Source: Candidatus Margulisiibacteriota bacterium
GTDB taxonomy: Bacteria; Margulisbacteria; WOR-1; O2-12-FULL-45-9
Direction: 5' to 3'
Assembly: GCA_034723395.1 (NCBI GenBank)
Contig: JAYEOW010000015.1
Span: 1-17,131 of the forward strand
Length of the DNA stretch: 17,131 nucleotides
Each line of letters starts with the position of its first letter. Position 1 is the first letter of the stretch. Positions 1 through 17,131 of the stretch are shown piece after piece. The notes beneath the pieces are model-generated. The model searched no databases and was not told the DNA's origin. It worked only from the letters and a program-made list of their open reading frames with translations. The translations under genes were made by a program, and so were the position numbers.

Positions 1-1
1 C

Positions 2-469: not shown

Positions 470-515
470 TTGATTTAACGATACTCATTTCGGTTAGGTT
501 TTTATATGATTTGAC
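452..515 (+). repeat. Two imperfect direct repeats at the probable right end of the IS
   Basis: ATTTCGGTTAGGTCTTAGTTGATTTAAC (452-479) and ATTTCGGTTAGGTTTTTATATGATTTGAC (487-515) share an identical 13-nt core and straddle the transposase stop codon. Confidence 0.7.
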
Positions 516-523
516 ACGGGGGG

Positions 524-2329: not shown

Positions 2330-2339
2330 GAGAATTTTA

Positions 2340-2687
2340 TTATCTTTGAGAATTGATAAGCCCAGATATCATCTTAGACAATTCTTCAAGCTTTTTATAC
2401 AAATCATTTTTTTGTTGAACTGAAATCAATCCCACATCGTTTACAATATCAATTATTGCAACACACTCGAATACCGAACCACGAGCAATAACATAAAAGT
2501 GCCTTTTGTCAGCTTTCGAATAACGTCCCGCCCATTCAGCAATATTTAATGGGATCGAAAGGCTAGCCCTTTGGAGTTGATCAATCATACGAGGGTGGAT
2601 CCCTTTCAACTTAGAAATTAATCCAGATGCTTCGCTGGCAAATTGCTTTGATTTTTTATATACTTCAAACTTCTCGAAATCGAACAT
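2340..2687 (-). CDS. Four-helix-bundle protein (23S rRNA intervening-sequence protein / Avd-like family)
   Basis: 115 aa with FEKFEVYKKS, DQLQRASLSIPLNIAE(W)AGR, FYVIARGSVFEC and SKMISGLI family motifs. Confidence 0.9.
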   Translation of the reverse strand: MFDFEKFEVYKKSKQFASEASGLISKLKGIHPRMIDQLQRASLSIPLNIAEWAGRYSKADKRHFYVIARGSVFECVAIIDIVNDVGLISVQQKNDLYKKLEELSKMISGLINSQR

Positions 2688-2694
2688 ATAATTA

Positions 2695-2703
2695 ATTATA
2701 CCA
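2695..2703 (-). promoter_or_regulatory. Extended -10 promoter (TGGTATAAT) 7 nt upstream of the ATG; probable leaderless transcript
   Basis: Minus strand reads TGGTATAAT-TAATTAT-ATG, with no Shine-Dalgarno sequence between the -10 and the start codon. Confidence 0.5.
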
Positions 2704-2733
2704 CGCCCTCATTCCTCCTCCTCATTCTTCTCC

Positions 2734-2759
2734 TTAAAATTTGCTTGCGCAAATTTTAA
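2734..2759. terminator. Perfect 11-bp hairpin immediately 3' of the tRNA (terminator or processing signal)
   Basis: TTAAAATTTGC-TTGC-GCAAATTTTAA. There is no U-tract on the minus strand, so a terminator role is uncertain. Confidence 0.4.
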
Positions 2760-2760
2760 A

Positions 2761-2834
2761 TGCGCCTGGCGGGATTCGAACCCACAACCCTTAGCTTCGG
2801 AGGCTAATACTCTATCCAGTTGAGCTACAGGCGC
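2761..2834 (-). tRNA. tRNA-Arg (anticodon CCG), CCA not encoded
   Basis: Reverse complement GCGCCTGTAGCTCAACTGGATAGAGTATTAGCCTCCGAAGCTAAGGGTTGTGGGTTCGAATCCCGCCAGGCGCA: 7-bp acceptor stem GCGCCTG/CAGGCGC, anticodon arm TTAGC-CTCCGAA-GCTAA, T-loop GTTCGAA. Confidence 0.96.
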
Positions 2835-2836
2835 AC

Positions 2837-2867
2837 GTCCTTCGACTCACTCCGTTCGCTCAGGATT
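2837..2867. repeat. REP-like short imperfect palindrome
   Basis: GTCCTTCGACTCACTCCGTTCGCTCAGGATT resembles the insert at 4495-4522 and supplies the last codons and TGA of the peptidase gene. Confidence 0.55.
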
Positions 2868-3476
2868 CAATTTTACCACAATCATCACTTTCCTGCCCGT
2901 TTTCCAGTCATGAATAGCATTAAAAGCAACCTGGTATTTATAACGGTAATTCCTTCCCCGCTTCGTGCCGGGGTCGTTGGTTATGAATTCTCCGCTACGA
3001 TCATCATATCCTTTGAACAACATATAATGGTAAGAGGGGCCGGGAGGAGTATAATATGGATTATTAAGCTCTCTCCCTGCCATTGGGGTAATAACTAAAT
3101 TCCCTTTGGCCAATTCATCCTTAATATCTTCGATTGAAATATCGTATTTTACTATTACATTACTATGATCATAATAATCCCTAATCAATTGGGCCGATTG
3201 TGCGGCAGTTAGATCGTAATGCCCGCCTAATTTCCTGCGCTGGAACGCCACTTGATCGAGAATCTCCATCTTCCCATCCGCTTTTGTTACCCCCTTCCCC
3301 TCAACATACCTCATCGCCATAATAATCGCCGCCTCTTCACAGCCATCCTGCCATGGCTGGCTCCAATTGGCGTACGGCGCCTGGCACAAAAAGGGAACGG
3401 GGATGTAGATCTTTATTGGTAAGGCACCTGCCGGGATAATTAAACTAATTAACAATATAATTAATAAAAGTCTCAT
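2847..3476 (-). CDS. Secreted C39-like cysteine peptidase
   Basis: Signal peptide; VPFLCQAP...DGCEEA (Gln and catalytic Cys); HYMLFKGYD (His); FITNDPG (Asp). Confidence 0.85.
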   Translation of the reverse strand: MRLLLIILLISLIIPAGALPIKIYIPVPFLCQAPYANWSQPWQDGCEEAAIIMAMRYVEGKGVTKADGKMEILDQVAFQRRKLGGHYDLTAAQSAQLIRDYYDHSNVIVKYDISIEDIKDELAKGNLVITPMAGRELNNPYYTPPGPSYHYMLFKGYDDRSGEFITNDPGTKRGRNYRYKYQVAFNAIHDWKTGRKVMIVVKLNPERTE

Positions 3477-3478
3477 AT

Positions 3479-3614
3479 GTTTGTTTAAGAATATCAGATG
3501 AACAGATTATCAGAACTGGAATATCAGAATATTAGAGTATCAGAATTTTCTAATATTCTGATTATCTGATCCTCCAGCTCTAGTCTTCTAATACTCTAAT
3601 ATTCTTACACAAAC
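3479..3614. repeat. Long imperfect palindrome built from 8-nt GAATATCA-like units
   Basis: Left arm: GTTTGTTTAA GAATATCA GATGAACA GATTATCA GAACTG GAATATCA GAATATTA GAGTATCA GAA. Right arm reverse complement: GTTTGTGTAA GAATATTA GAGTATTA GAAGACTA GAGCTG GAGGATCA GATAATCA GAATATTA GAA. Confidence 0.85.
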
Positions 3615-3690
3615 CACCAACAACTAATTTTATCATAATAAATCAAATTAGAATGCAAGTTTGGGCAGCGATAGAACGATAAGATATACG

Positions 3691-3864
3691 ATGGCATTTA
3701 CAACCGGGATCGTCCCCTTTAAATTTTACCAGGCAAGACAAAACGATGTTGGGCTTACTGTCGCCGAATTCGCTAACAATAGGAATCTCCCCGTAGAACG
3801 TGTTGAAAGGGAAAATAAGTCCGAAAAAATCGAAGACGGCGAAATGATTATTTTACATAATTAG
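3691..3864 (+). CDS. Small hypothetical protein (doubtful)
   Basis: ATG at 3691 gives 57 aa in an otherwise empty gap. It has no recognisable motif and overlaps the convergent FAH gene by 17 nt. Confidence 0.3.
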   Translation: MAFTTGIVPFKFYQARQNDVGLTVAEFANNRNLPVERVERENKSEKIEDGEMIILHN

Positions 3865-4456
3865 TAAGCTTCCCGACCCCTTCGATCTCGACCACTACCT
3901 CATCCCCAACCTTCATCTCCCCTATCCCCGGCGGCGTCCCGGTAATGATCACATCATCTTTTTGCAGGGGCATGATCTGTGAGATAAATGATATGAGATA
4001 TTTGACGGGGAAAATCATATTTGAAGTGTTGGAAGACTGCTTTAACTCGCCATTCAGATAAGTTTTTATTGCCAGATTGTCCGGATTTATATCTTTTACG
4101 ATCCTCGGCCCTAAAGGACAGAAGGTATTAAACGATTTTGCCCGAATCCATTGCCCATCTCTCCGCTGTAGATCACGCGCCGTCACATCGTTCGCACAAG
4201 TAAATCCTTTGATATGCTTTAACGCTTCCTCCGGCTCGATCTTTTCCGTGTGGTCCTTGATCACAACTGCCAGTTCACATTCGTAGTGTAATTCTTTTGT
4301 CATCGCTGGATAAATAATCGTATCACCATTATAAATCACCGTAGTTGGTGGCTTCATAAAGATAACTGGCTCTTTAGGGATCGGTTTATTCATCTCTTTA
4401 GCGTGATCTATATAATTTAATCCGACACAGACTATTTTAGTAGGCTTTAATTTCAT
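3848..4456 (-). CDS. Fumarylacetoacetate hydrolase (FAH) family protein
   Basis: KIVCVGLNYIDH, PVIFMKP, HYECELAVVI, NDVTARDLQ, RAKSFNTFCPLGP and DVIITGTPPG motifs. ATG 4456 is preferred over GTG 4465 because GAGGTG lies at SD spacing from it. Confidence 0.95.
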   Translation of the reverse strand: MKLKPTKIVCVGLNYIDHAKEMNKPIPKEPVIFMKPPTTVIYNGDTIIYPAMTKELHYECELAVVIKDHTEKIEPEEALKHIKGFTCANDVTARDLQRRDGQWIRAKSFNTFCPLGPRIVKDINPDNLAIKTYLNGELKQSSNTSNMIFPVKYLISFISQIMPLQKDDVIITGTPPGIGEMKVGDEVVVEIEGVGKLTNYVK

Positions 4457-4473
4457 TTCTGACACCTCTATTA

Positions 4474-4594
4474 TAAATCCAAATTAAAAAATCCCCCTCG
4501 GCACAAGTTGCTCGGGGCAAGCAAAATCCCAACAATGTGTTTTTATCATATAATATTTTCCTTGTTTGGATTTTGACATTTGGATTTTGGATCT
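4474..4594. mobile_element. Heptamer-arm cassette, copy 1 (empty, MITE-like), with a 28-nt REP-like insert in the left arm
   Basis: Left arm TAAATCCAAATTAAAAAATCC[4495-4522 insert]AAAATCCCAACAATGTGT and right arm CCTTGTTTGGATTTTGACATTTGGATTTTGGAT, separated by only ~19 nt of AT-rich DNA. Confidence 0.7.
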
Positions 4595-4605
4595 ATCCCG
4601 ACAAT

Positions 4606-5100
4606 TAAATCCAAATTAAAAAATCCAAAATCCCAACAATGTGTCGCCTGCGGCGACATATTATTATATTTCACTTCACCTTTTCGATTATCGAGCTCAA
4701 TATCTTGACCAATTCATTACATTCTGAAAGGAGCATCTTTGCTTTTTCAATATTTGCAGCATTGTTAAGTGATTTTGAATTGATAATCAATCTGAGCCAA
4801 TAAGCAGTTTCTTTGGCCTCATTCCGAGCAATGGTAGTCTTGTTACCGAATTCTTTTCTGCTCCTGGCGCCGTCAGCTTCTTCTACGTTCGCACCGATCG
4901 ATGTTCCGGATCGAATAATTTGCCTTCCAATATCCCTGATCTCTGAATTCCTTAATAAAATCCGGCTAAACTTCACCATCTCAAGCGCAAATCGATAAGT
5001 CCGATCTTTAATATCGTATTTTTTTGTCATATAAATTAAATTCCGAGCGAGAGCGAGGGATACCTTGTTTGGATTTTGACATTTGGATTTTGGATTTCAT
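4606..5100 (-). mobile_element. Heptamer-arm cassette, copy 2, carrying a four-helix-bundle gene
   Basis: The same left and right arms flank the 4671..5030 ORF; internal hairpin TGTCGCC-TGC-GGCGACA. Confidence 0.75.
4671..5030 (-). CDS. Four-helix-bundle protein (23S rRNA IVP / Avd-like family)
   Basis: DIKDRTYRFA, RQIIRSGTSIGANVEEA, SRKEF, EAKETAYWLRL and ELVKILSSI motifs. Confidence 0.92.
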   Translation of the reverse strand: MTKKYDIKDRTYRFALEMVKFSRILLRNSEIRDIGRQIIRSGTSIGANVEEADGARSRKEFGNKTTIARNEAKETAYWLRLIINSKSLNNAANIEKAKMLLSECNELVKILSSIIEKVK

Positions 5101-5105
5101 ATTGT

Positions 5106-5903
5106 CTATTTCTGGCACCTTGGACAAAAATAAGTTCCCCTTTGGGCCATAACTATCCGTTTCACCCTTGACTTTGATTTACATCTTACACAATTTTCCC
5201 CTTTTCTGCCATAGACCTTCAACCGGAGCTGGAAACCGCCTTTTTTTCCCTTCGCGTCAACGAACCAGTTGTCCGATGTCCCCCTTTGCCCTAATGCTTC
5301 GTGCAAAATATTTACGATTTCCCTGTGAAGCCTTTTTATCTCTGCATCTTTCAGGCTGTCTCCCCTTCTTTGAGGCCTTATCCTTGCCCTAAAAAGCGCC
5401 TCGGCCGCGTAGATATTCCCGATCCCGGATATCAATCTTTGCTGCATGAGAATATTTTTTATTTTTGTCTTCCTCGACCCCAATATCCCTTTTAACACTT
5501 CCGGGGTAAAAACATCCGACAGCGGCTCCGGGCCGAGTTTCAGGTCGGGATATTGGCCAAAAAATCTTATCTTCCCGAAAAGGCGCGCGTCAGAATAATA
5601 CAAGGACCTCTTCCCGGAAAGATCAAATATCACTTTTACATAATCATCAGGGGAAAAGAGGAGCCGGCCGGTCATGCCAAGATGGACAACCATATATTTG
5701 CCGGAGGCAAGCTCAAAGAGAAGATACTTTGCCCGCCTTTTAACATCAACGATCTTCTGGCCTATCATCTTTTTCTTAAGTTGTTTAAATGAAATACCGC
5801 GGATCACACGACGGTCGATCGCCTCAACGTTAATTACCTTTCTCCCTTTTACGAAAGGAAGAACATCACGGCGGACTATCTCTACTTCGGGAAGTTCCGG
5901 CAT
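5106..5903 (-). CDS. mutM: Formamidopyrimidine-DNA glycosylase / AP lyase (Fpg)
   Basis: N-terminal MPELPEVE, RRAKYL, HLGMTG, DARLFG, LGPEP, GIGNIYAAEALF (H2TH) and C-terminal zinc finger CVRC...CPRCQ. Confidence 0.97.
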   Translation of the reverse strand: MPELPEVEIVRRDVLPFVKGRKVINVEAIDRRVIRGISFKQLKKKMIGQKIVDVKRRAKYLLFELASGKYMVVHLGMTGRLLFSPDDYVKVIFDLSGKRSLYYSDARLFGKIRFFGQYPDLKLGPEPLSDVFTPEVLKGILGSRKTKIKNILMQQRLISGIGNIYAAEALFRARIRPQRRGDSLKDAEIKRLHREIVNILHEALGQRGTSDNWFVDAKGKKGGFQLRLKVYGRKGENCVRCKSKSRVKRIVMAQRGTYFCPRCQK

Positions 5904-5914
5904 AGAAGACTATA

Positions 5915-7177
5915 CTAGCGGATTACGACGCCAAACTCAACCTCGCGCTCGGCTCCCGACGATTCGTCGGTGACCAGCCATTTAACATTGGTGACATTCG
6001 GATCGACATAAGTTCCAAATGGGGTATAATCCCAGGTCAAACCTTCGTCGCTCGAAAACTGTATAGTAGGAAATGTTTCACCGGTAGCCGATCCGAGCAG
6101 AAATTCGGTAAAATTTGGCGGCACCTTATCGGCAATCTCTATTCCTGAAGAGCGGGCAAATCCATCATTTAGATAGGTAAGTGTATAGGTAATTGTTGAT
6201 CCTGGAACAGGATCATATGGATCGCCCGAATATCCACCAGAGATCGGCGCCTCGGTAGTTAACGATCGGGTAAGCTTCATATGCGGCGCGCTCCCTTCGT
6301 TGGAGAAATCACTTATGTTCCCCGCGTTATCCTGCGCGGCGATCACATAATAGTAGTTATTTCCAAGCGATACTCCGCTATCATCGGTAGCTGTGTCGGT
6401 TAACAATGGAAAGTATAGATAATAACCTGTCCCCCAAACCTCTTCGGTCCGGTAGACATTATATCCGGCGAGACCCGAAAGTGCGTCGGTAGTTGGAGTC
6501 CAGGACAGATAAACGTAAGTTGGTCCTGCATCGGGTGAAGCCAGTGCGGTAATAATTTCGGGAATTAGCGGCGGGACAAAATCGGCGCGGTAATCGTTGG
6601 GAGAACCGCCCAAGACCACCCAATCGCTGTAATAATTCTCGAGATCTTTTACTCTTGCCTGCCAGATATACCCTTCTCCATGCGCTGCTTCTCCGGCAGA
6701 GACCGAAGCATTAAGCGTAGTTCCCGAATAATCGGTCGCGGAACTCTCCCCGCTTACCGAATTTGTAAAAGCCTCGCCGCTATAGGCAATTTCGACCTGC
6801 AGAGTGAGGATATCGCCCGGGTCCGGATCATCCATATCAGCTTTGAATACCTCAACAGTTGTATTTGTCCAGCCAGCCGGCCAGGATATCTGAACCACAC
6901 CGCCATCTTTATATTGATCTAATGATTCGGGGGTGCCCGGTTTTGTATTAGTTTGGTAGGTATAGCCGCCCCAGGCGGTAAAATTTGCCGATCCCTCTTT
7001 GGTCCCAAGATCGGTTCCGTTGCCGACGCGAAGGATATAGCTTGCCGAAGCCCCTTTACTTCCAACCTGCGTTATCCCATCGCTCTGGATCCCATAATTA
7101 CTACTCGACCGCTTGGCAGCGTAAGCGGCTGTCATTGATAGAAGAGCTATTAAAAATATTAGCCATCTATTTTTCAT
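5915..7177 (-). CDS. Secreted protein with fibronectin type III-like and C-terminal DUF11-like domains
   Basis: Signal peptide MKNRWLIFLIALLSMTAAYA; FN3-like VYLSWTP...LAGYNVYR...YYYVIAAQDNAGNIS; DUF11-like PGSTITYTLTYLNDG...IADKVP...VKW...FGVVIR. ATG 7177 is chosen because the two orphan gene starts begin at the equivalent codon (7183 is an alternative). Confidence 0.75.
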   Translation of the reverse strand: MKNRWLIFLIALLSMTAAYAAKRSSSNYGIQSDGITQVGSKGASASYILRVGNGTDLGTKEGSANFTAWGGYTYQTNTKPGTPESLDQYKDGGVVQISWPAGWTNTTVEVFKADMDDPDPGDILTLQVEIAYSGEAFTNSVSGESSATDYSGTTLNASVSAGEAAHGEGYIWQARVKDLENYYSDWVVLGGSPNDYRADFVPPLIPEIITALASPDAGPTYVYLSWTPTTDALSGLAGYNVYRTEEVWGTGYYLYFPLLTDTATDDSGVSLGNNYYYVIAAQDNAGNISDFSNEGSAPHMKLTRSLTTEAPISGGYSGDPYDPVPGSTITYTLTYLNDGFARSSGIEIADKVPPNFTEFLLGSATGETFPTIQFSSDEGLTWDYTPFGTYVDPNVTNVKWLVTDESSGAEREVEFGVVIR

Positions 7178-7192
7178 TACCATTATTGGAAT

Positions 7193-7642
7193 TTAAATAT
7201 TGTTACCAATCTCTTTGATAAAAGATTTGCCCTTTTTGGAATAATCTTTAAGTATATCTAGATCAAGAGTATTGTCGATAATAAAACCATATTGAATTTC
7301 CTGTCTACTCTCTTTAAGGGCTCTCAAAATATTTAAGTAATTTTCAGATATTTGACCAGATTTAATATAGGCATGCTCAAGATAAGTTAATGTACAATAA
7401 TGGCTTCTCTCTTTTATTCCATCCTTAAAAAGCAATGCTCTTGCGGCATGAAAAAAAGCATAGTAAAGATAGATAGAAATTGTTTCGACATCTTCCAGCT
7501 TCAGATAGTTTTCAGCTTTTTCTAAAAAATGCTCTGCCTGGCGGATGCTTTTACCAGCCAATTCTCTGCTTGGCCTGCTTTTGATCAAAAGTCTCTTTTT
7601 AAAACAATCATCAACTTCAGTCAAATATTCCCTCTCCTTCAA
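7193..7642 (-). CDS. HEPN domain protein (putative toxin of the MNT-HEPN pair)
   Basis: AEHFLEKAE...YYAFFHAARALL...GIKERSH...RQEIQY pattern, directly overlapping the MNT gene. TTG at 7624, behind GGAGAGGG, is a likely alternative start. Confidence 0.85.
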   Translation of the reverse strand: MKEREYLTEVDDCFKKRLLIKSRPSRELAGKSIRQAEHFLEKAENYLKLEDVETISIYLYYAFFHAARALLFKDGIKERSHYCTLTYLEHAYIKSGQISENYLNILRALKESRQEIQYGFIIDNTLDLDILKDYSKKGKSFIKEIGNNI

Positions 7643-8174
7643 ATATCGAAGTGAATTTTATGCGGGAGTAAAACTCGGGATCCTTATTTTTTATTCTCTG
7701 CAGCTTATCTTTATTTAATATTAATATATTGGTTTCAACTTTAAGCTCTTTTTCAAAAATTGAAGATATTTTTGAAACCTTTGCCGGATCCATTCTCTCT
7801 GCATAGACCCACAGGTCCAAATCGCTATGCTCATCGTTTGATCCATCGGCAAAAGAGCCGTAGATCCCCGCCACTCCCACCCTGCTAAGCTCAAAGTAAG
7901 CTTTTGATGATAGTAATTCATTAAGATTAATGAATGATTTTACCTTTTGAAGCAAAAGATTTTCCCGCTTTAAAAAAACTATTTTCCTATTCTTTTCTTT
8001 AGAAATTTCAACAAATTCCAAGTTAAGCAGCTTTTTTATAGTTGAATGAGTAACTGAAGTAGAAATCTTTAGAGTACTCGCGATCTCCCGAAGGTAAAAA
8101 TCTCCTCTCGAAAGAAGTCTTATTACTTTAAAACCATTTTTGTCCAACATTTTAAAGATATTCATATCGTTCAC
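7617..8174 (-). CDS. Winged-HTH plus minimal nucleotidyltransferase (MNT) antitoxin
   Basis: N-terminal wHTH (YLREIASTLKISTSVTHSTIKKL) and nucleotidyltransferase signature IYGSFADG...SDLDLWV. ATG 8165 is an alternative start. Confidence 0.88.
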   Translation of the reverse strand: MNDMNIFKMLDKNGFKVIRLLSRGDFYLREIASTLKISTSVTHSTIKKLLNLEFVEISKEKNRKIVFLKRENLLLQKVKSFINLNELLSSKAYFELSRVGVAGIYGSFADGSNDEHSDLDLWVYAERMDPAKVSKISSIFEKELKVETNILILNKDKLQRIKNKDPEFYSRIKFTSIFEGEGIFD

Positions 8175-8234
8175 ATATCAGAACATTTTGTTCTAATGTC
8201 AGAACATTGTATCCTGATTTTTAGAACATTTCAA
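8168..8234 (-). promoter_or_regulatory. Sigma70 promoter TTGAAA-N17-TACAAT overlapped by repeated operator-like sites
   Basis: -35 at 8234-8229 and -10 at 8211-8206. AGAACATT occurs at 8180, 8201 and 8223; palindrome TGTTCT-N6-AGAACA at 8189-8206. Confidence 0.7.
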
Positions 8235-8356
8235 GCACATCCGGGCACTCTTGCCTCGTCGCTTTGGATCCCATAGTTACTACTACTCCGCTTGGCAGCG
8301 TAGGCGGCTGAAATAACTAAACATATTAAGATAAATATTAACAGCTTATTTTTCAT
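8231..8356 (-). pseudogene. Truncated second copy of the 5' end of the FN3/DUF11-like gene (41 aa)
   Basis: MKNKLLIFILICLVISAAYAAKRSSSNYGIQSD vs MKNRWLIFLIALLSMTAAYAAKRSSSNYGIQSD; 8259-8310 matches 7080-7131 at 46/52 nt. Confidence 0.8.
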
Positions 8357-8365
8357 TATATTTAT

Positions 8366-8893
8366 TAAATCCAAATTAAAAAATCCAAAATCCCAACAAT
8401 GTGTCGCCTTCCTCCTTCGCTCTACGAGCTTCGGAGGACAAGTCGGCGACAAATTATTATATTTCATTTAACTTTTTCAACTATCGAGCTCAATATTTTT
8501 ATTAATTCATTACATTCTGAAAGAAGAATCTTTGCTTTTTCAATATTCGCAGTATTGTTAAGTAATTTGGCATCGATAGTCAATCGAAGCCAATAAGCAG
8601 TTTCTTTGGCTTCATTTCGAGCAATGGTAGTCTTGTTACCGAATTCTTTTCTGCTCCTGGCGCCGTCAGCTTCTTCTACATTCGCTCCGATGGAAGTCCC
8701 GGACCGAATGATCTGCCTTCCAATATCCCTGATCTCTGAATTTCTTAATAAAATTCGGCTAAACTTCACCATCTCAAGCGCAAATCGATAAGTCCTATCT
8801 TTAATATCGTATTTTTTTGTCATATAAATTAAATTCCGAGCGCAAGTGAGGGATACCTTGTTTAGATTTTGACATTTGGATTTTGGATTTCAT
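8366..8893 (-). mobile_element. Heptamer-arm cassette, copy 3, carrying a four-helix-bundle gene and a REP-like insert
   Basis: Same arms as copy 2; the hairpin loop is expanded by CCTCCTTCGCTCTACGAGCTTCGGAGGACAAGT. Confidence 0.75.
8464..8823 (-). CDS. Four-helix-bundle protein, paralog of 4671..5030
   Basis: 119 aa with 8 substitutions relative to the 4671..5030 protein, all in the C-terminal third. Confidence 0.92.
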   Translation of the reverse strand: MTKKYDIKDRTYRFALEMVKFSRILLRNSEIRDIGRQIIRSGTSIGANVEEADGARSRKEFGNKTTIARNEAKETAYWLRLTIDAKLLNNTANIEKAKILLSECNELIKILSSIVEKVK

Positions 8894-8914
8894 GTAATCC
8901 TCCACAATCCCTCA

Positions 8915-8947
8915 TTAGGCATTAAAAAACAGCCATCTATTTTTCAC
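8915..8947 (-). pseudogene. Third, very short remnant of the same gene start (MKNRWLFFNA*)
   Basis: 8931-8946 is identical to 7161-7176 (AGCCATCTATTTTTCA). Its GTG lies 10 nt after the stop codon of the giant gene. Confidence 0.55.
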
Positions 8948-8957
8948 GATGTTTTAA

Positions 8958-11900
8958 TTATTGGGTCATTGAGATCGTCTTTAGCTCGATCCGATCAGCC
9001 TTGTTATCAAGCAGCTCGAGAACGGACTCAAGTTTCAACTCAAGTTCTGCAACCTTTGCTTTTAGCTTCTCATTCTCTGACCCCGAAAGCTTAAGTTCCC
9101 TCGATTTTACCGAAGTGGTCAATATCTTTTCGGCCGCTTTGGCGATAACCGGCACCTTTGCCCGGGTCGACTCCTGAACATAAGCTTCGTTCTGTTTATT
9201 AGCAAATTTTTCCCAATTCTCTTTGATCTTTGCCATCTCATAAGCTTTATCGGTGTTCATCGACATTTGCATACCGACCAGTAAATAATTGTCCTCTTGT
9301 ATTTCTTCGGTAAATTCTACCTTTGCAATAAAATAATCTTTCGCTCTCTCAACAATCTCGATCTCACCCTGAGAAGGATCAACCAGGCAGATATTGTAAT
9401 CAGGATTTTCTATATACTTAACATAGTCCTTGTCAATAATAACTTTTACATCACCAGCTTTAGTAAACGGCATCTCACCGGTTAAAGTGATGTTGTTGCC
9501 ATCAACTTCGATGTCCATAAAGGCCTTGTGGGCGTAGATGAGGCCTCTTCTTTTAAGGACATCTAACCGGTCACCCAGGTTCCTGGCATAGGAATCTGCA
9601 TATATCTCGTCCTTTCCGAACTCTACGTGGTGTAGATAACCACCTTGTGTAAACCTTTTATTATCCTTAACCTCTTCAACAATGATAGGATTTTCCAGCG
9701 CCCACTTATCGTGGCGAATACCGGTCACCTGCCACGAGACCTTCATCCCCGGATCCCCTCCAGAGATCTTAAATTTATTACCCTTCACCTCTTCCTTGAT
9801 AAACACATCGGCATAGTTACCAATCGTGGTTAGTTGATACCTAAAATCCTGGTTTAGGGCTTCAAAATATCCGGGCAGTTCGATGACCGCCTCTCCATTA
9901 TCGTTTAGCACAATAACCCCGTCGTAAACGTTCTTCATATCCGGACTTTCGACGAAGCTATGACGCAGAACCTTATTTTCCGGATCTACCGGATGGTCGA
10001 TCAAGAATGTTCCGCCGGCTTTTGTTAGTGTACCATCAACCCATACATTATCCTGGAACTCAGCATCGTCGCTAAAAAAGATATCACTCGCTCCCGTCAT
10101 CCCGTGGCTCATTCCGGTTTCACTGCCAACATAATTGTAATTTCCAATAGGATTATTACCACCAACCCGAATAAGAGAAGTATAGATGCCCTCTCCCCCA
10201 CTAAAGTAGCCACCCCATCCGTCTGGACCTGAAGTAATTCCGTTTACTCCATAGTTCCTATAACCTGCTGTAGCATAACTAGCCCAACCATAAACCCCTC
10301 GACTATATCTCGCCGCTGCCCTTCCATAGATTCCGTAGGTTGTGCCAGTTCCAGTATTACTTTCGTAGCCATAGACCCCATAACCAGAGGCCCCAAGAGC
10401 CCGGAAATATCCGCCGTAATTTGTACTGGCACTATCTGATGCATAGCCATAAACTCCTCTTCCATAATCACCCTGTGCAACAAAATATCCGCCGTAATTT
10501 GTAACGGCAGCTGTATCCGATGCCCAGCCAAAAATTCCCCTTCCAGAATCACCACACGCGCGGAAATATCCGCCATAATTTGTAACGGCGGCTGTATCTG
10601 ACGCACACCCATATGCCCCTATACCGGAATCAGTTGCTGAGTGAAAATATCCACCAATACCGGTACCCGCGCCGGTATTGGTAGTAGTGCCATATACCCC
10701 TCGGCCAGCTGACGAAGCATTGCTAAAGTAACCGCCGTAAGTTGTTCCGGAAATTGCGTATGCGTTAGCATAGACACCCCAGGTGCTCCCACCCAACAGA
10801 CCGCGAGAAACGGCTGTCCCTCCTGCAGGATATCCCGCAACTCCCCATGATCCGCCAATTTCTCCATGAGTTCCACTCGCCTCATTCGTCGCAAATACCG
10901 CAGTTCCGGTCGATCCCCGTGATCTAAAATATCCGCCGTAATTCGTTCCCGCCCCGGAATTGGCTGCGTAACCATAGACTGCTTTCGCGTCAGAGAGACC
11001 GGCAACCTGCCCATAAACACCATAATCTGAATCTGAATAACCCATTACCCCATAATTAGACCCACCTAATCTCCCATACTTATTTACATCATATCGCCCA
11101 TGAACACCATAACTTGCCGATCCTATATATCCCCACTTATTACCGTCAGGGGATACACCATAAACACCATAACTTGGCCCCCCCACATATCCGGAATATC
11201 CGCTCCCCTCATTCGTCGCGAACAGACTATAACCGGAGGAATCTGTGGTTTTAAAATACCCGCCGTACTTACTGCCACTAGCTTCAATCCCCCGGCCGTA
11301 CTCGTAAGTATCATCCCAAAATGCTAGTCTCGCATAGCTGCCGGTGTCCGGATGATAAAAATAACTGCCTTTATATGAACTTCCAGCTAAATAAGCCTCG
11401 CTTACAGGAGACTGCATTCTATTCAACGCGTACAGGCCGTAGCCCGCGGTGCTATCGGTACCAAAATACCCTCCGTAATTGGTGCCGCTCTCCGCGGTGG
11501 CGTATCCATAAACCCCATAGCCGCCTGAGTTAGAGGTAATCGCGGAAACCCCGCGAGCGGAATCAACGCTTAGAGTCAGCGTCCCCGTCATCGTATCGCC
11601 GGCCTTGAGAACATAGGCGCCGAGATCTCCGGAGGTCGCGACCCCCGTCAAATTCGACCCATCGCCGTACAATGTAGTTGCGGTCATCGATCCAGACACA
11701 TTTACCGGACCGTTGAAATATCCAGCCCAGTTCGGAGTAGCTAATTGAGCATAATTATCATGGGTTTCAGTCGTTGCGACCAATCCTACACCATCCCCGT
11801 ATCCTACGGCAAAATATCCACCAACACCAGAATCTCCATTACTATAGCCATATACTCCCCGCCCCGCGTCAGCATGCGATGAAAAATAACCGCCAATGGC

Positions 11901-14900
11901 TGTCCCTTCGCCAGTAGTAGCATGTCCTTTTACCGCAATTCCCGATCCAAGGCCAGCAGAGCCATAAACTCCAGCGTTTAGACCACCTAATTGGCCATAT
12001 CGATAAGAATTTACCCCTTCTCCATGAACAGCAACCGAACTACCGCCGTTTGACCTAAAAAATCCGCCATAGTTTGTCGATCCCGAAGCGGGCGATTCGG
12101 CAGAAATAGCTGCCCCGGTAGAATTGGTAGCCTTTACCCAGATCGCATACGGCTGCGTAGCTTCAGTCTGCATAGCCGAAGGGCCAAGCTCTACATAATC
12201 TCCACCCGCACCGCCGGTCGGTACCCCCGTCAAATTCGACCCATCGCCGTACAATGTAGTTGCGGTCATAGAACCAGAAACATTTACCGGCCCCTCGAAA
12301 TACCCAGCCCAATTCCCAGTCCCCAGCTGTGCGTAATATCCATCTCCGCCAGATGCTTCATTGGTTACTCCCAATCCTATACCATCGGAGCTTTTTACTA
12401 CAAAATATCCGCCATGGGTCGCTCCCGTAGTCGAATATGCCGTCACATGCACTCCGTACCCAAGCGTCCCCATCGCGTAAAACTCGCCGCCGTAATGCTC
12501 AACAGCTCCGGAGTTGGTAGCTTGGCCAACAACCCCCCTTCCCCCAGCCCCGCTGGACGCCCCAATCAACCCTGCCCCGTCCGAAGAACTTGAATTTCCC
12601 TTAACACCCGCCGTCGGACCAACCCCATAAAGACCAATATGTGTCGAATTGCCCCAAACTCCTAAACCATTTGTCCCCGTGGCGTTTGCGTAGACCGCAT
12701 GTCCATTTTGCCCGTTAGCTTGAAAATAACCGCCGTATTTTGTTCCTAAATTAGCGTTGGAAGCGATCCCATAAACCGCTCGACCTTCGGTAGACGAATT
12801 TAGCGCCCTTATCGAATAAACTGAGGATGTATCTACGGTCAGCACTCCCGTCATCGTATCGCCCGTTTTAAGGACGTAGTCGCCCAGATCTCCCGAAGTC
12901 GCAACTCCAGTTAAATTCGATCCGTCGCCGTAAAAACCGGCCGTTGCGGTCATCGATCCCACAACATTCACCGGCCCTTCAAAATAACCGGCATAAGTAG
13001 GAGTAGCCAAAGAAGCTCCCATACCACTCCCCTCGCTGGTAGCATATAATCCGATGCTATCATCACTCGTCGAGTAAAAATATCCGGCATAGTTTGTTCC
13101 TTCGTTTGAGCCTGAATAAGAATACACGCCGTAACCGCTCGGGCTGTAGGTCTCAAAGTAACCACCCCCCCCCGACCCCGCGCCCGAATCATTCGCGGCA
13201 TAAATACCATATCCATTGTCACTCGAAGAAGTAAATTTTCCTCCATAGGTGGCTTTGCTGCCTATATACGTCGCCTTAGCTTCTATGCCATAATCGGTCC
13301 CCTCCACATTTATGGCGTGTATTCCTCCCGTCTGCGCTCCACCGGGTCCCAGCTTCACATAACCCGACAACTCAGGCGCTTCCAGAGTACCGGTGATGTT
13401 CACCGGCCCCTCAAAATATCCGGCATAGTCGTTTCTCGCCAGCTGGGCATAATATCCATTGCCTCCTGCCGCTTCGCTGCTTGCCAACAGGCCCATCCCA
13501 TCCGTGCTGCTGGTGCGAAATCGACCGCCGTAATTGGTACCTTCCGTTGAGATCGCAAAACCACACACTCCGGTCCCATCATCGGCATTGGACTGAAAAT
13601 ATCCGCCCATACCTCCACCGCTACTGCCTAGATGCTCACCGACTACTCCATATCCCGATCCCGCCACCGACGTGAAGTATCCCCCGAAGGTAGACTTCGA
13701 GGTTGCAGTCGCTAAACCCTTTACCCCGGTATTGTCCCCCATTCCGTAGACCCCTACCCCTCCAAAGGATCCGGTCGATTCGGCAGAAATCCCGTATCCA
13801 GAACCATTTGTCGTCTTTATCCGGATCGCGTATAAGTCGGAAGTCTCAACCGTTAACGTCCCGATCATCGTATCGCCCGCTTTGAGGACGTAGAGATCAT
13901 CCGCCGCTTCCTGGGTTAAAAATTCACTGGCATGCTTGCCGTCCACCATGTCGGCGTTAAGATTGGCAACTACGGTTGTTGAAGAAATTTGGAAAGGTGC
14001 TGTTCCGGTTTCAACCGTCGAAATAATCTGCGCTCCAGTCGTCAATACCCCCGTCATCGTATCGCCGGTGTCTTTTACAAAACCGGAAATATCTCCCGCC
14101 GAAAGCGTCCCCGTAATATTCACCGGTCCGTTGAAATAACCCGCCCAGTTGGGATCTGCGAATTTAGCGTAATGGTGAATGCCGGTCCCTTCGTTGGTAA
14201 CCAGCAAACCGGTGCCCTGCCAACTGCGTGTCACGATATAGCCGCCATAATTAAATCCCGTAGTTCCGTTGGCCTTCGCGTATAAACCTATGCCGGAGAG
14301 GCCCCCGCCTATAAACTGTCCGCCATAGTTATGAGAACTGGACCCATAGACCCCCGCCCCCTGCGTCCCAGCAGAAGTAAAATGGCCGCCATGGTTGGTG
14401 TTACCCGACGCATTGCTGGCGTTCCCGTAAACCGCGTAGCCATTAATTCCCGCCGCACTAAATCGTCCTCCATAATTCGTAGAGGAAGTAGTATCAGTCG
14501 CCGCTCCGTAAACCCCGATAGAAATAGCCCCTCCGGTGGAAACTCCGTAGACCCCGTAACTGCTGTCCCCTCCGGCACTCCCATAAAGCCCATGCGAGCT
14601 GACCGCCCCCGACTCTCCATAAACACCGTATGAACTGGCGTTGTTTGAACGGCCGTAAACTCCATAAACCGTTCCTTCTCCGCGAACGCCCGCATTATTC
14701 GCCCCGTCTCCCAGCGTTCCCTTTTCCCCGTTGACGCTTCTTCCAAATACCGCGGTCCCGTCGGCTGAAGCCTCGGCTGATACCACATAACCAGGACTGC
14801 CCGCCGCCTGCACCCAGATCGCGTTATTCCCGGAAGCAGTTTGTTTTGATACCGGCTCAAACTCCACATACTTGCCCTCTAAACTTGTCCCATCATCATA

Positions 14901-16958
14901 GTAATACGAGGAAGCGGTCATCGATCCTACAACATTCACCGGCCCCTCAAAATATCCGGCCCAGTCGGGAGTTGCCAAAGACGCAGCCAAAGTGCTCCCT
15001 TCGCTGGTGGCATATAAACCCGTCCCTAAGCTGCTTTTGGTTACAAAAAAACCGCCAAAGTTTGCAGCCGCCCCCGCAGCCTCGGCAGAAATCCCCTTTG
15101 CCCCGGCGCTGTTTCCTTTTGCCACAAAGTAGCCGCCCACGTTCGCGGCCGAGCCGATCGAATCTCCTACGCCATAAACGCCGACCCCTGAACTACCATC
15201 CGCCCTAAAATATCCGCCGTAGTTAGCGCCGACATTATTATTGGCGAAGCCGTATACGCCGCGGCCCCGCTGCCCTTCCACCTGGAAATATCCCCCGTAA
15301 TTCTCAAAATCGCCAGTATTGGTGGCCTGCCCATCAACTGCGTGCGCTGTTCCTTCACCTGTCACTTCGCTCTGAAGCCCAATTCCGCCAGAGCCCTCTG
15401 TATAAGCCTGGATTCCAATGCTTGCGCCCTCACCCCGCACGCCCGGCCCGGTCCTTCCAAGATAAGCTTTTGAAGAACCGACCTCCACCGTCAATGCTCC
15501 ATCCATCTCATCGCCCGTTTTAAGGACGTAGTCGCCCAGATCTCCCGAAGTCGCAACTCCAGTTAAATTCGATCCATCGCCGTGGAAAGTTGTCGCTGTC
15601 ATCGAACCAGAAACATTTACCGGCCCATTAAAATATCCGGCCCAGGAGGGGGTAGCAAGCTCAGCATAATATCCGTTGCCCGAATAACTCCCGCCTTCGC
15701 TGGTTGCGACAAGACCTTTGCCGGCCGAGCTCCTGGTTATGAATTCTCCTCCGTAAGTCGCCGCGGATTCGTCGGTCGCCAGACCTCTAACGGCGGTCCC
15801 CGTACCAGCACGGGCTTCCATGCCATATTTTCCGCCCTGTGCCCAAACGCCCCAACCACTACCGCTCTGGCTTACAAAATTACCGGCAAGAGTCTCATCC
15901 TCGCCGCTCATAGTCACTTTGATCCCCGACGCTCCTCCCTGCGTGTTTTGGATCCAGATCGCTTTACTCGCAGAAACCGTCTGCTCGGAGGTAGGCGCAA
16001 GCTTTACGTAACTGCCTTCTGTCGCAACATTGCTCAGGTACTGCCCGTCGCCGTAAAACGCATCCGTATAGATCGACGATGTAGCCGTTAATGTTCCGAC
16101 AACATTCACCGGACCGTTAAAATATCCCGCCCAGCCGCCGGCGGTATTTTGGGAATACAAACCGTAACCGGAAGGACTATTAGATCGGAAATATCCGCCA
16201 TAGGTTGTTCCGGATCCGGAAGTTGCCCACCCCCAAACCGCCCTGGCAGAGTTGGGTGAATTCGTGATCGCTTTTATTCCACCACCGGTGGTACCGGAAT
16301 GATCAAAATAACCGGCATAACTTTCATCTCCGCCGTCGGATTTAGCATATATACCTTTGCCTGTTTCCCCATGCGAATAAAAGTACCCTCCGATTCCCCC
16401 ACCATCATACTTGCTTGCTGCGCCATAAACCGCGGTCCCGCCATTATCAGTTGCCTCAGCCGAAATCGCCAGCGCAGATGCCCCAACCGTCAACGTCCCC
16501 GTCATCTCATCGCCCGCTTTGAGGACGTAATCGCCGCCAGTCGCCGGCGCAAAATAACTGCTGTCGTGGCCATCAAGAAGATCCGAATTAAATGCATAAC
16601 CGGAAGGGACAACTCTCTGCCGCGGGGTCATCTCACCATCAGCATCAACATTTATCCCTAAATAGATCGCCTCACGAGTAAAATCGGTGGCCGAAAGCGG
16701 AGTAACCGAACCTAGAAGAACATTGAAGAAGCCGCTTTCGGTCGAAACCGTCTGCGTCTCTGTCCAGAAATACGTGCCGCCAGAAGCGACACTGTATAAT
16801 TTAAACACAAAAGAATAATTCCCATCGTCTTTAGGCACATTACTCGCGTCGGTGAGCTTACCCTGATAGTTCATCAGCGTTGGGACCGCGAATGCTATTC
16901 CCCCTATTAGAATTAGACAAACTACCAGAAACAGGCCGATTCTGATCTTTTTAAACAT
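8958..16958 (-). CDS. Giant secreted Gly/Ser/Thr/Tyr-rich repetitive fibre/adhesin-like protein (2666 aa)
   Basis: SD AAGGAGG; signal peptide then VPTLMNYQGKLTD...WTETQTV...GFFNVLLG...EMTPRQR domain; many GVYG/NYGGYF beta-repeats; YVLKxGDxMTG fibre motifs; C-terminal KAGGTFLIDHPVDPENKVLRHSFVESPDMKNVYDG domain and coiled coil. Confidence 0.85.
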   Translation of the reverse strand: MFKKIRIGLFLVVCLILIGGIAFAVPTLMNYQGKLTDASNVPKDDGNYSFVFKLYSVASGGTYFWTETQTVSTESGFFNVLLGSVTPLSATDFTREAIYLGINVDADGEMTPRQRVVPSGYAFNSDLLDGHDSSYFAPATGGDYVLKAGDEMTGTLTVGASALAISAEATDNGGTAVYGAASKYDGGGIGGYFYSHGETGKGIYAKSDGGDESYAGYFDHSGTTGGGIKAITNSPNSARAVWGWATSGSGTTYGGYFRSNSPSGYGLYSQNTAGGWAGYFNGPVNVVGTLTATSSIYTDAFYGDGQYLSNVATEGSYVKLAPTSEQTVSASKAIWIQNTQGGASGIKVTMSGEDETLAGNFVSQSGSGWGVWAQGGKYGMEARAGTGTAVRGLATDESAATYGGEFITRSSAGKGLVATSEGGSYSGNGYYAELATPSWAGYFNGPVNVSGSMTATTFHGDGSNLTGVATSGDLGDYVLKTGDEMDGALTVEVGSSKAYLGRTGPGVRGEGASIGIQAYTEGSGGIGLQSEVTGEGTAHAVDGQATNTGDFENYGGYFQVEGQRGRGVYGFANNNVGANYGGYFRADGSSGVGVYGVGDSIGSAANVGGYFVAKGNSAGAKGISAEAAGAAANFGGFFVTKSSLGTGLYATSEGSTLAASLATPDWAGYFEGPVNVVGSMTASSYYYDDGTSLEGKYVEFEPVSKQTASGNNAIWVQAAGSPGYVVSAEASADGTAVFGRSVNGEKGTLGDGANNAGVRGEGTVYGVYGRSNNASSYGVYGESGAVSSHGLYGSAGGDSSYGVYGVSTGGAISIGVYGAATDTTSSTNYGGRFSAAGINGYAVYGNASNASGNTNHGGHFTSAGTQGAGVYGSSSHNYGGQFIGGGLSGIGLYAKANGTTGFNYGGYIVTRSWQGTGLLVTNEGTGIHHYAKFADPNWAGYFNGPVNITGTLSAGDISGFVKDTGDTMTGVLTTGAQIISTVETGTAPFQISSTTVVANLNADMVDGKHASEFLTQEAADDLYVLKAGDTMIGTLTVETSDLYAIRIKTTNGSGYGISAESTGSFGGVGVYGMGDNTGVKGLATATSKSTFGGYFTSVAGSGYGVVGEHLGSSGGGMGGYFQSNADDGTGVCGFAISTEGTNYGGRFRTSSTDGMGLLASSEAAGGNGYYAQLARNDYAGYFEGPVNITGTLEAPELSGYVKLGPGGAQTGGIHAINVEGTDYGIEAKATYIGSKATYGGKFTSSSDNGYGIYAANDSGAGSGGGGYFETYSPSGYGVYSYSGSNEGTNYAGYFYSTSDDSIGLYATSEGSGMGASLATPTYAGYFEGPVNVVGSMTATAGFYGDGSNLTGVATSGDLGDYVLKTGDTMTGVLTVDTSSVYSIRALNSSTEGRAVYGIASNANLGTKYGGYFQANGQNGHAVYANATGTNGLGVWGNSTHIGLYGVGPTAGVKGNSSSSDGAGLIGASSGAGGRGVVGQATNSGAVEHYGGEFYAMGTLGYGVHVTAYSTTGATHGGYFVVKSSDGIGLGVTNEASGGDGYYAQLGTGNWAGYFEGPVNVSGSMTATTLYGDGSNLTGVPTGGAGGDYVELGPSAMQTEATQPYAIWVKATNSTGAAISAESPASGSTNYGGFFRSNGGSSVAVHGEGVNSYRYGQLGGLNAGVYGSAGLGSGIAVKGHATTGEGTAIGGYFSSHADAGRGVYGYSNGDSGVGGYFAVGYGDGVGLVATTETHDNYAQLATPNWAGYFNGPVNVSGSMTATTLYGDGSNLTGVATSGDLGAYVLKAGDTMTGTLTLSVDSARGVSAITSNSGGYGVYGYATAESGTNYGGYFGTDSTAGYGLYALNRMQSPVSEAYLAGSSYKGSYFYHPDTGSYARLAFWDDTYEYGRGIEASGSKYGGYFKTTDSSGYSLFATNEGSGYSGYVGGPSYGVYGVSPDGNKWGYIGSASYGVHGRYDVNKYGRLGGSNYGVMGYSDSDYGVYGQVAGLSDAKAVYGYAANSGAGTNYGGYFRSRGSTGTAVFATNEASGTHGEIGGSWGVAGYPAGGTAVSRGLLGGSTWGVYANAYAISGTTYGGYFSNASSAGRGVYGTTTNTGAGTGIGGYFHSATDSGIGAYGCASDTAAVTNYGGYFRACGDSGRGIFGWASDTAAVTNYGGYFVAQGDYGRGVYGYASDSASTNYGGYFRALGASGYGVYGYESNTGTGTTYGIYGRAAARYSRGVYGWASYATAGYRNYGVNGITSGPDGWGGYFSGGEGIYTSLIRVGGNNPIGNYNYVGSETGMSHGMTGASDIFFSDDAEFQDNVWVDGTLTKAGGTFLIDHPVDPENKVLRHSFVESPDMKNVYDGVIVLNDNGEAVIELPGYFEALNQDFRYQLTTIGNYADVFIKEEVKGNKFKISGGDPGMKVSWQVTGIRHDKWALENPIIVEEVKDNKRFTQGGYLHHVEFGKDEIYADSYARNLGDRLDVLKRRGLIYAHKAFMDIEVDGNNITLTGEMPFTKAGDVKVIIDKDYVKYIENPDYNICLVDPSQGEIEIVERAKDYFIAKVEFTEEIQEDNYLLVGMQMSMNTDKAYEMAKIKENWEKFANKQNEAYVQESTRAKVPVIAKAAEKILTTSVKSRELKLSGSENEKLKAKVAELELKLESVLELLDNKADRIELKTISMTQ

Positions 16959-17004
16959 CCAAATCCCTCCTTATTAATAATTCCGAATTCCGAACTTTGG
17001 AACT

Positions 17005-17131
17005 TTAAATCCAAATTAAAAAATCCAAAATCCCAACAATGTGTCGCCTTCCTCCTTCGCTCTACGAGCTTCGGAGGACAAGTCGGCGACAAATTATTAT
17101 ATTTCATTTAACTTTTTCAACTATCGAGCTC
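17005..17131 (-). mobile_element. Heptamer-arm cassette, copy 4 (truncated by the window edge)
   Basis: 127 nt identical to 8365-8491. Confidence 0.8.
17104..17131 (-). CDS. 3' end of a further four-helix-bundle gene (…SSIVEKVK*)
   Basis: Identical to 8464-8491. Confidence 0.75.

Follow-up and report, generated by a model that had tools for sequence, protein, structure and literature searches.

A 17,131-nt stretch of a Candidatus Margulisiibacteriota genome (contig JAYEOW010000015.1, positions 1 to 17,131; the whole stretch analysed is called the window) carries a family of small cassettes in which a gene of the 23S rRNA intervening sequence (IVS) protein family lies between inverted arrays of 7-nt units. 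The cassette arms are arrays of about 35 nt, the 5' arm being rich in A and other purines and the 3' arm rich in T, and the encoded protein is an IVP/Avd-type four-helix bundle (PF05635/TIGR02436). The favoured explanation, to which about an even chance is given, is that the units are accessory, probably selfish, IVS-type cassettes, with the four-helix-bundle gene in the loop of an imperfect hairpin.

Such a cassette has been inserted as DNA at a gene junction and is transcribed along with the host genes. On the host transcript, the arms would pair into a long A-U-rich stem, and RNase III may cut this stem, by analogy with the heptamer-bearing 23S IVS of Coxiella, so that the host messages would be separated and the cassette RNA freed. 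The protein, presumably a pentamer, might bind the heptamer arrays. Spread at the DNA level would proceed via recombination and not through a classical transposase, since target duplications vary in length, a full and an empty unit stand in tandem, and a reverse transcriptase (RT) or intact transposase is absent from the sequences searched.

Architecture of the units and the encoded protein

Every gene of the window lies on the minus strand. The units are all intergenic and co-directional with the flanking genes, as the first-pass annotation, a reading of the letters alone, had described. That annotation listed four copies, at 4474-4594, 4606-5100, 8366-8893 and 17006 to the end. The positions hold, but only two copies are complete, at 4606-5100 (full unit 1, 495 nt) and 8366-8893 (full unit 2, 528 nt). 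The copy at 4474-4594 is a gene-less mini-unit in tandem with full unit 1, 14 nt downstream, and the fourth (copy 3, 17006-17131) is known for 126 nt, over which it is 100% identical to 8366-8491; its remainder lies past the contig end.

Inverted arms with a 7-nt period had likewise been proposed and are confirmed by exact or near-exact copies. The 35-nt left arm occurs three times without change (4607-4641, 8367-8401, 17007-17041) and the right arm three times with at most one mismatch (4560-4594, 5063-5097, 8856-8890), while any match was seen in 0 of 200 shuffles. Complementarity between left and right arms is 74-77% over a span of 42-44 nt. A fourth left arm, at 4475-4517 in the mini-unit, is interrupted by a 28-nt GC-rich insert. 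Read in gene sense, a full unit consists of an ATG, five heptamers, a 32-nt leader, a 119-codon open reading frame (ORF), an AT-rich tract, a GC-rich hairpin (GTCGCC-loop-GGCGAC) and five heptamers of opposite sense. Unit 2 has an extra 33-nt nested hairpin. The ATG of full unit 1 (5098-5100) opens a 30-codon out-of-frame upstream ORF. The parts of the units are as follows.

5063-5100, minus strand: 5' arm of full unit 1 (gene sense AAATCCA AAATCCA AATGTCA AAATCCA AACAAGG), the heptamers preceded by the ATG at 5098-5100
4671-5030, minus strand: 119-aa four-helix-bundle gene of full unit 1 (PF05635 E 6.3e-19; TIGR02436 E 4.4e-25)
4642-4656, minus strand: GC-rich hairpin GTCGCC-loop-GGCGAC of full unit 1, between stop codon and 3' arm, also found in the cassette of relative G013
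4606-4641, minus strand: 3' arm of full unit 1 (gene sense CATTGTT GGGATTT TGGATTT TTTAATT TGGATTT)
4474-4594, minus strand: gene-less mini-unit with 5' arm (4560-4594), 22-nt AT-rich loop and split 3' arm (4475-4517)
8856-8893, minus strand: 5' arm and ATG of full unit 2, one substitution relative to unit 1
8464-8823, minus strand: 119-aa four-helix-bundle gene of full unit 2 (PF05635 E 1e-19), protein 93% identical to that of unit 1, 33/360 nt different
8402-8455, minus strand: extended 3' hairpin of full unit 2, with a nested CCTCCGAAGC...GCGAAGGAGG hairpin within the GTCGCC/GGCGAC stem
8366-8401, minus strand: 3' arm of full unit 2, same sequence as in unit 1
17006-17131, minus strand: copy 3, truncated at the contig end and comprising the 3' arm, the long hairpin and the final codons of its gene

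The identity of the protein is well grounded, and the four-helix-bundle assignment made at first pass stands. The two ORFs score 68.6 and 71.0 bits against PF05635 (cut-off 33.8) and 88.0 and 88.5 bits against TIGR02436 (cut-off 24). Family matches of the cassette protein in the domain scan are limited to PF05635, and it is not an HUH (Y1) transposase by that scan. An AlphaFold2 model built with 44 homologues predicts a four-helix bundle (predicted local distance difference test, pLDDT, 94.6). With this model as query, Foldseek returns 2RLD (template modelling score, TM, 0.82-0.90) and 2GSC as the best matches, followed by Avd and the Avd-containing ribonucleoprotein of a diversity-generating retroelement (DGR). 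A sequence search also finds 2RLD (E 5.4e-28). Both 2RLD and 2GSC contain five chains, A-E, and a Xanthomonas member of the family is cited as a homopentamer in one paper (PMC4990558).

Between the two complete genes, 33 of 360 positions are changed, and these changes make 22 codons differ synonymously and 8 non-synonymously. The resulting non-synonymous (dN) and synonymous (dS) divergences are 0.029 and 0.43, and the protein is judged functional because a dN/dS of 0.068 indicates strong purifying selection. Across both arms, units 1 and 2 show a single difference in 71 nt, a conservation far above that of the synonymous sites (P = 2e-11 under their rate), which would reflect either sequence constraint or homogenisation among copies. 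The sole difference is a C to T change in the 5' arm, by which a C-G pair would become U-G.

Two further repeats accompany the units. The GC-rich hairpin CCTCCGAAGC...GCGAAGGAGG, nested in the 3' hairpin of unit 2 and copy 3 and absent from unit 1, recurs in the window (8410-8445, 17050-17085) and elsewhere in the genome (C7:18046-18089, C7:75325-75358, C28:14915-14944). A REP-like (repetitive extragenic palindromic) motif, ATTGTCGGGA, lies beside unit 1 and has 12 genomic matches, mostly coding.

Insertions at gene junctions and related loci

The first-pass annotation regarded the units as a cassette family at operon junctions that may be mobile or regulatory, and comparison of filled and empty sites shows a discrete family inserted as DNA at gene junctions. 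In three relatives (G002, G026, G004; MutM 57-63% identical), the mutM stop codon overlaps the ATG of the FAH-family gene (ATGA; CAAAAATGA and similar). In the host genome (G000; 1.68 Mb, 97% complete), the mutM-FAH gap is about 640 bp and holds unit 1 and the mini-unit. Presence at this junction therefore varies, and the units are insertions because the two genes overlap in the three relatives. The junction of lexA and a radical-SAM gene (C53:22373-22873 in the host genome, compared with L127, L129 and L132-L134) varies as well. The host cassette there has an in-frame stop in its ORF; G017 is filled, with an IVP 75% identical in protein; G019 has a gene-less hairpin of a different heptamer type; G028 has another filler; and G021 and G023 are empty, with 4-7 nt between the genes. 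A scan of metagenomes with the exact 33-nt mutM end for strains with an empty site gave 0 matches. The Logan DNA contigs of one run end at the arms and give no sign of excision or of a circular junction. A joint of 8370 to 8816 in X2 and X3 was rejected as an excision product, for it has sides of 21 nt and stems from arrays of other organisms.

Target-site duplications (TSDs) had been declared not obvious, which proves wrong for the window. A direct duplication of 13 nt, 12/13 identical, brackets the pair formed by full unit 1 and the mini-unit, and an imperfect duplication of at least 17 nt (16/17) accompanies unit 2.

5108-5120, minus strand: left copy of the 13-nt target duplication, AGGTGCCAGAAAT (gene sense), at the mutM end
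4455-4467, minus strand: right copy, AGGTGTCAGAAAT, which now gives a Shine-Dalgarno (SD)-like GAGGTG and the ATG (4454-4456) of the FAH-family gene
8931-8947, minus strand: orphan copy of the DUF11-type gene start (GTGAAAAATAGATGGCT) upstream of full unit 2, 16/17 identical to 7167-7183
8259-8356, minus strand: second, longer 5' fragment of the DUF11-type gene, which immediately follows full unit 2 and matches 7090-7183 at about 78% identity

Flanking direct repeats in 47 related loci score no better than chance (mean best score 5.30 vs 5.25 for the null, duplications of 2-4 bp being below detection), and a long TSD was rejected as a general feature. A transposase with a fixed stagger is unlikely because the duplications differ in length and none stands above the null in the 47 loci. 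Recombination, or selection for insertions that preserve both gene ends, fits better. Campbell-type integration of a circle into a resident hairpin is a possibility. It would leave extra direct arms, and such arms are found in the window (full unit 1 with the mini-unit), at C46:1906 and in G017. As a rule it was rejected, since extra arms occur in about 7 of 47 loci and 29 of 47 have a plain arm-gene-arm architecture.

The absence of a transposase or RT, claimed at first pass, is confirmed for the 12 window ORFs scanned, the 2666-aa gene being outside that scan. PF00078 (RVT_1) has 0 matches in the host genome, while control genomes do match. A genome-wide search for Y1_Tnp gave one match, a frameshifted IS200-like gene (C19:37500-38500) with REP-like CCGACAAT...ATTGTCGG hairpins on its flanks. 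The genome has a gene for RNase III.

Relatives of the cassette gene are widespread. PF05635 genes occur in all 31 genomes searched of the order, with 1-15 matches each. A wider census, restricted to subfamily A, took the best 80 of 598 confirmed relatives in species-representative genomes of many phyla, using a 5-sequence alignment of that subfamily as query; 73 loci entered the inverted-arm test, the other 7 having flanks that were too short or contained N. Self-identity at lag 7, taken over the best 35-nt window in 74 loci, is 0.69 upstream, 0.69 downstream and 0.37 inside the gene, and at other non-multiple lags it is 0.38-0.51. Inverted arms upstream and downstream reach z >=3 in 56/73 loci and z >=5 in 47/73, with a median inverted-repeat arm length of about 33 nt. 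A and G predominate in the 5' arm, T and C in the 3' arm, which for an inverted repeat is true on both strands.

Unit number varies. Strict arrays have 4 units in 34/78 cases and 5 in 20/78, with a range of 2-18, and the arms count 2-9 units. Five units per arm is thus rejected as a rule, and the proposed match of five heptamers to five subunits is not specifically supported. Non-consensus bases in the arrays are confined to 1-2 of the 7 columns (share 0.845 vs a null of 0.728, null maximum 0.77). A strict protein-heptamer code was also rejected, for one ATTACG core flanks two IVPs about 21% identical, and the G013 IVP is 49-52% identical yet has AAATTAA-type arms. A -10-like TATAAT before the ATG is striking in the host copies, but as a general promoter it fails, being found in 8/77 loci vs 17/297 control positions.

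Within the host genome there are 11 PF05635 matches, two of them with in-frame stops. Arms at z >=4.9 accompany 6 of the 11 genes, with units that include AAATCCA, AATTACG, ATTACGN and the 8-nt GTAGTNTT. One gene (L028, C7:70246-70701) has a 40-residue N-terminal extension, has no clear arms and overlaps both neighbours in what appears to be a pilus or secretion (PilC/GspF-like) operon, a neighbour named by eye. A tRNA gene precedes the IVP gene in 4 of the 11 cases (Arg-CCG, in the window; Leu-GAG; Leu-TAG; Gly-CCC). The case in the window belongs to another subfamily.

2340-2687, minus strand: four-helix-bundle gene apart from the cassettes, from another subfamily (21% identical), with tRNA-Arg(CCG) at 2760-2835 lying 72 nt upstream

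This gene has a perfect hairpin and a purine-rich array upstream, and a clear 3' arm is absent. In an Rfam scan of the window, tRNA-Arg was the sole match.

Other features surround the units. A pair of genes for an MNT-type nucleotidyltransferase (7617-8174) and a HEPN protein (7193-7642) lies between the intact DUF11-type gene (start 7183) and the fragment at 8259-8356, which with about 78% identity to the start of that gene is a gene-fragment scar. Cassette copies in direct orientation, 100% identical over the visible 126 nt, stand on both sides of the 2666-aa repeat-rich gene (8958-16958), and recombination between them could delete or amplify this gene. Window positions 1-518 are covered by a Logan contig of depth 110 vs about 17, with 46 differences, and may be a repeat or derive from a related organism; the ORF at 2-469 has no family match in the domain scan.

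RNA stem, DNA element or protein site

Whether the arms act as an RNA stem, a DNA element or a protein site is the question on which the readings part. The RNase III route is the most likely of them, unproven and by analogy, and two others are live rivals, a DNA system like that of REPINs (REP doublets forming hairpins) and RAYTs (REP-associated tyrosine transposases), and an RNA regulator like the tryptophan RNA-binding attenuation protein (TRAP). Orientation speaks for residence on RNA. Neighbours were callable on both sides in 59 loci and mutually co-directional in 45, and between such neighbours the IVP gene points the same way in 43 loci and is opposed in 2. A symmetric element inserting at random would agree about half the time, so 43 vs 2 is a strong bias. 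Together with the tRNA linkage, this orientation points to residence within host transcripts; the IVP gene almost always shares the direction of its neighbours or of a tRNA gene and is therefore read through with host transcripts. In the Coxiella IVS, GACAGAT heptamers lie in the 5' stem before the S23p ORF, and RNase III cuts at the first repeat (PMC4990558).

Several results weigh against a selected RNA stem or against the favoured reading as a whole. The first-pass annotation had the arms pair in mRNA, and this is plausible in so far as they pair in predicted minimum free energy folds, but the z scores are modest; that of full unit 1 is only -1.1, and other folds give -3.3 and -2.55. The stems of 56 related loci contain 1530 Watson-Crick pairs and, among mismatches, 87 G:U, 81 A:C and 164 others, so that the wobble excess of an RNA stem is absent. 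The window arms are only 74-77% complementary and fold in a shifted register, and their odd heptamers occupy non-mirrored positions. The Coxiella authors believe that the IVS protein is not made (PMC4990558). The arms also have an existence of their own apart from the gene, because an IVP gene adjoins just 2 of the 40 strict heptamer arrays of the host genome, and because the 26-nt 5' arm is found unchanged, down to its odd third heptamer, in 8 metagenome contigs of which none has an IVP gene within 700 nt. The arms are not specific to four-helix-bundle genes, and most arrays of the arm family are gene-less.

In a REPIN/RAYT-like system at the DNA level, heptamer hairpins would be non-autonomous mobile DNA, and protein from a few master copies would recognise, spread or maintain them in trans. 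Gene-less hairpins of the window arm family stand at C50:30316-30393, C55:2466-2555, C40:48910-49000 and C43:23093-23197, one-sided arrays occur elsewhere in the genome, and the 8 contigs with the exact arm fit the same picture. Arm sequence is constrained, stem mismatches are strand-symmetric, array variation keeps to 1-2 of 7 columns, and the genome has 40 arrays at lag 7 vs 0, 14, 7, 1 and 4 at lags 5, 6, 8, 9 and 10. This DNA system is nevertheless held to be unlikely. No nuclease or recombinase motif is known in the PF05635 family, a regular TSD was not found in the 47 loci, several array families of the host genome lack a cognate IVP gene, the same ATTACG core stands beside two widely divergent IVPs, and the orientation bias is unexpected for a symmetric DNA element.

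A TRAP-like regulator would dispense with selfishness altogether. The pentamer would recognise arrays in single-stranded form within leaders of its own and other mRNAs, each subunit taking about one unit, and its gene would be autoregulated. The distance from the 5' array to the start codon is 0-26 nt in many of the 73 loci, an SD-like core is present in only 15/77, the arrays have a periodic degenerate position, and inverted-repeat arms have a median of about 33 nt. The solved relatives are five-chained, Avd is part of an RNA-protein complex, and TAACTGA heptamers lie directly upstream of start codons in Beggiatoaceae (PMC4679880). Presence or absence at conserved junctions, however, resembles insertion and not membership of a regulon, unit number runs from 2 to 18, 2 of the 11 host copies have in-frame stops, and arrays also lie within coding sequence. 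Regulation of this kind is accordingly rated as quite improbable.

Arrays in coding sequence are observations in their own right. The signal peptide MKKPKSKIQNPKFIIGILFVICYLTFVIPGALA of a 647-aa protein is encoded in frame by a heptamer hairpin, (AAAATCC)n-(ATTTGTC)n, at C29:122800-122889 (L123, minus strand), its Lys-rich start coming from the A-rich arm and its hydrophobic core from the T-rich arm. The metagenome loci L116 and L120 are gene-less inverted doublets of the same repeats, and there a heptamer hairpin likewise forms the signal peptide of an FlgH-like protein. In hisS (C4:43913-43947, L124, minus strand), a one-sided AAATCCC array in frame encodes the linker MKSQIPMTKSQQC, which joins the catalytic and anticodon-binding domains.

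A passive association would need neither element nor regulator. The arrays would be slippage-prone simple repeats left by host replication, and a small gene would happen to sit in AT-rich spacers. Heptamer arrays are indeed common in the host genome without an IVP gene, and heptanucleotide repeats are the most abundant class of simple sequence repeats in most genomes (PMC4679880). Against this stand the inverted arms of 56/73 loci, the conservation of the arms (P = 2e-11), the preservation of an exact arm with its odd heptamer across copies and metagenomes, and the real order of units, which pairs better than 95% of permutations in 16/39 loci by a test biased upward, the stems being chosen by score. 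Coincidence of this sort is very improbable. An assembly artefact, in which the copies are collapsed or chimeric repeats of a metagenome bin, is scarcely credible. The contig stops in copy 3 after exactly 126 identical nt, which resembles a k-1 overlap, and Logan contigs of the sole matching run break at the arms. Units 1 and 2, however, differ at 33/360 ORF positions and by a 33-nt indel and have unique flanks in one contig, independent contigs enter the arms from unique sides, and related cassettes occur in 31/31 genomes of the order.

A bolder reading is regarded as unlikely. The protein pentamer would be a dedicated reader of heptamer arrays, at about one unit per subunit, and IVP genes and the much commoner gene-less arrays or hairpins would together be one two-component system. 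It would cover the repeats of the short tandemly repeated repetitive (STRR) type, some of which would now serve as signal-peptide or linker codons, and it would consist either of master and non-autonomous copies of a novel, transposase-free mobile element or of a TRAP-like RNA regulon.

What is at stake is a protein family that is widespread (31/31 genomes of the order, many phyla), yet whose function is known only in DGRs, and heptamer repeats, the commonest longer simple repeat in bacteria and likewise unexplained. The window links the two. It offers paralogues for a selection test, a gene-less derivative beside a full copy, empty sites in relatives and target duplications that constrain the insertion mechanism. 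If the units are processed like rRNA IVSs, they would be a widespread class of selfish elements able to reside in operons and in transcripts of tRNA genes with no polar harm to them. Reading of arrays by the protein, if real, would be a new mode of nucleic-acid recognition, and the two-component system, if true, would account at once for a protein family that has been an orphan for 30 years and for the surplus of heptamers among bacterial genomes.

In a full-text literature search, supplements excluded, IVP genes with heptamer arms outside rRNA were not found described. Heptamers are mentioned for a single rRNA IVS in the Coxiella paper (PMC4990558), and the Beggiatoaceae paper places TAACTGA arrays before start codons and does not tie them to the IVP family (PMC4679880). 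The arm selection test, the target duplications and the 43-vs-2 orientation count are new as far as can be told; so, apparently, are the null G:U result, the tRNA linkage and the heptamer hairpins used as signal-peptide or linker codons.

Comparison with known systems

The closest counterpart is the ORF-bearing 23S rRNA IVS, known from helix 45 in Coxiella burnetii, from Leptospira and from others (PMC4990558, also for the Coxiella details that follow). The IVS-like design proposed at first pass matches it well. The protein family is the same (S23p/PF05635), the ORF lies within the loop of a stem formed by terminal inverted repeats and has the sense of the host transcript, and size is similar (428 nt in Coxiella; 495 and 528 nt in the window). 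The Coxiella IVS even has tandem heptamers in its RNase III-cut 5' arm, just before the ATG. The window cassettes differ in lying outside 23S rRNA, at the mutM/FAH junction, at both ends of the 2666-aa gene and after tRNA-Arg, and in having several paralogous copies and gene-less derivatives in one genome. The Coxiella arms have one mismatch and one bulge in 28 bp, whereas complementarity in the window is looser, and the Coxiella ORF is reported to be decaying, whereas that of the window is under strong purifying selection. RNase III cutting is experimental in Coxiella and would extend to the window cassettes by analogy.

REPIN/RAYT systems comprise few gene-bearing copies with inverted-repeat flanks, and the same repeats are scattered as gene-less hairpin doublets. 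The flanking repeats of the window cassettes are similarly dispersed as gene-less inverted doublets (C50, C55, C40, C43, L116, L120). The cassettes differ in that their gene does not encode an HUH/Y1 transposase and their arms consist of tandem 7-nt units and not of a single REP palindrome; mobility of the hairpins is only hypothetical here. Transposons with terminal inverted repeats, and miniature inverted-repeat transposable elements, share with the cassettes the terminal inverted repeats, the short gene-less derivatives and the intergenic insertion. They differ in that the cassette unit lacks a transposase, the genome having one frameshifted IS200-like gene, in that TSD length is not fixed (13 and at least 17 nt in the window; null in 47 loci), and in the strong orientation bias relative to host transcription.

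The DGR protein Avd (PDB 4DWL; DGR ribonucleoprotein 8UB7) has the same fold as the cassette protein (Foldseek probability 1.00, TM about 0.67-0.73) and acts in complex with RNA. Sequence identity is about 16%, RVT_1 was not found in the 97%-complete host genome, and a template or variable repeat was not seen. The STRR heptanucleotide repeats of heterocystous cyanobacteria are tandem 7-nt arrays. Like them and like the TAACTGA repeats of Beggiatoaceae (PMC4679880), the window arrays are intergenic and tandem, of a kind often found just upstream of start codons, and tandem 7-nt arrays are over-represented in the host genome. Unlike them, the window arrays form inverted pairs around one gene family, a link that the accessible text of PMC4679880 does not draw.

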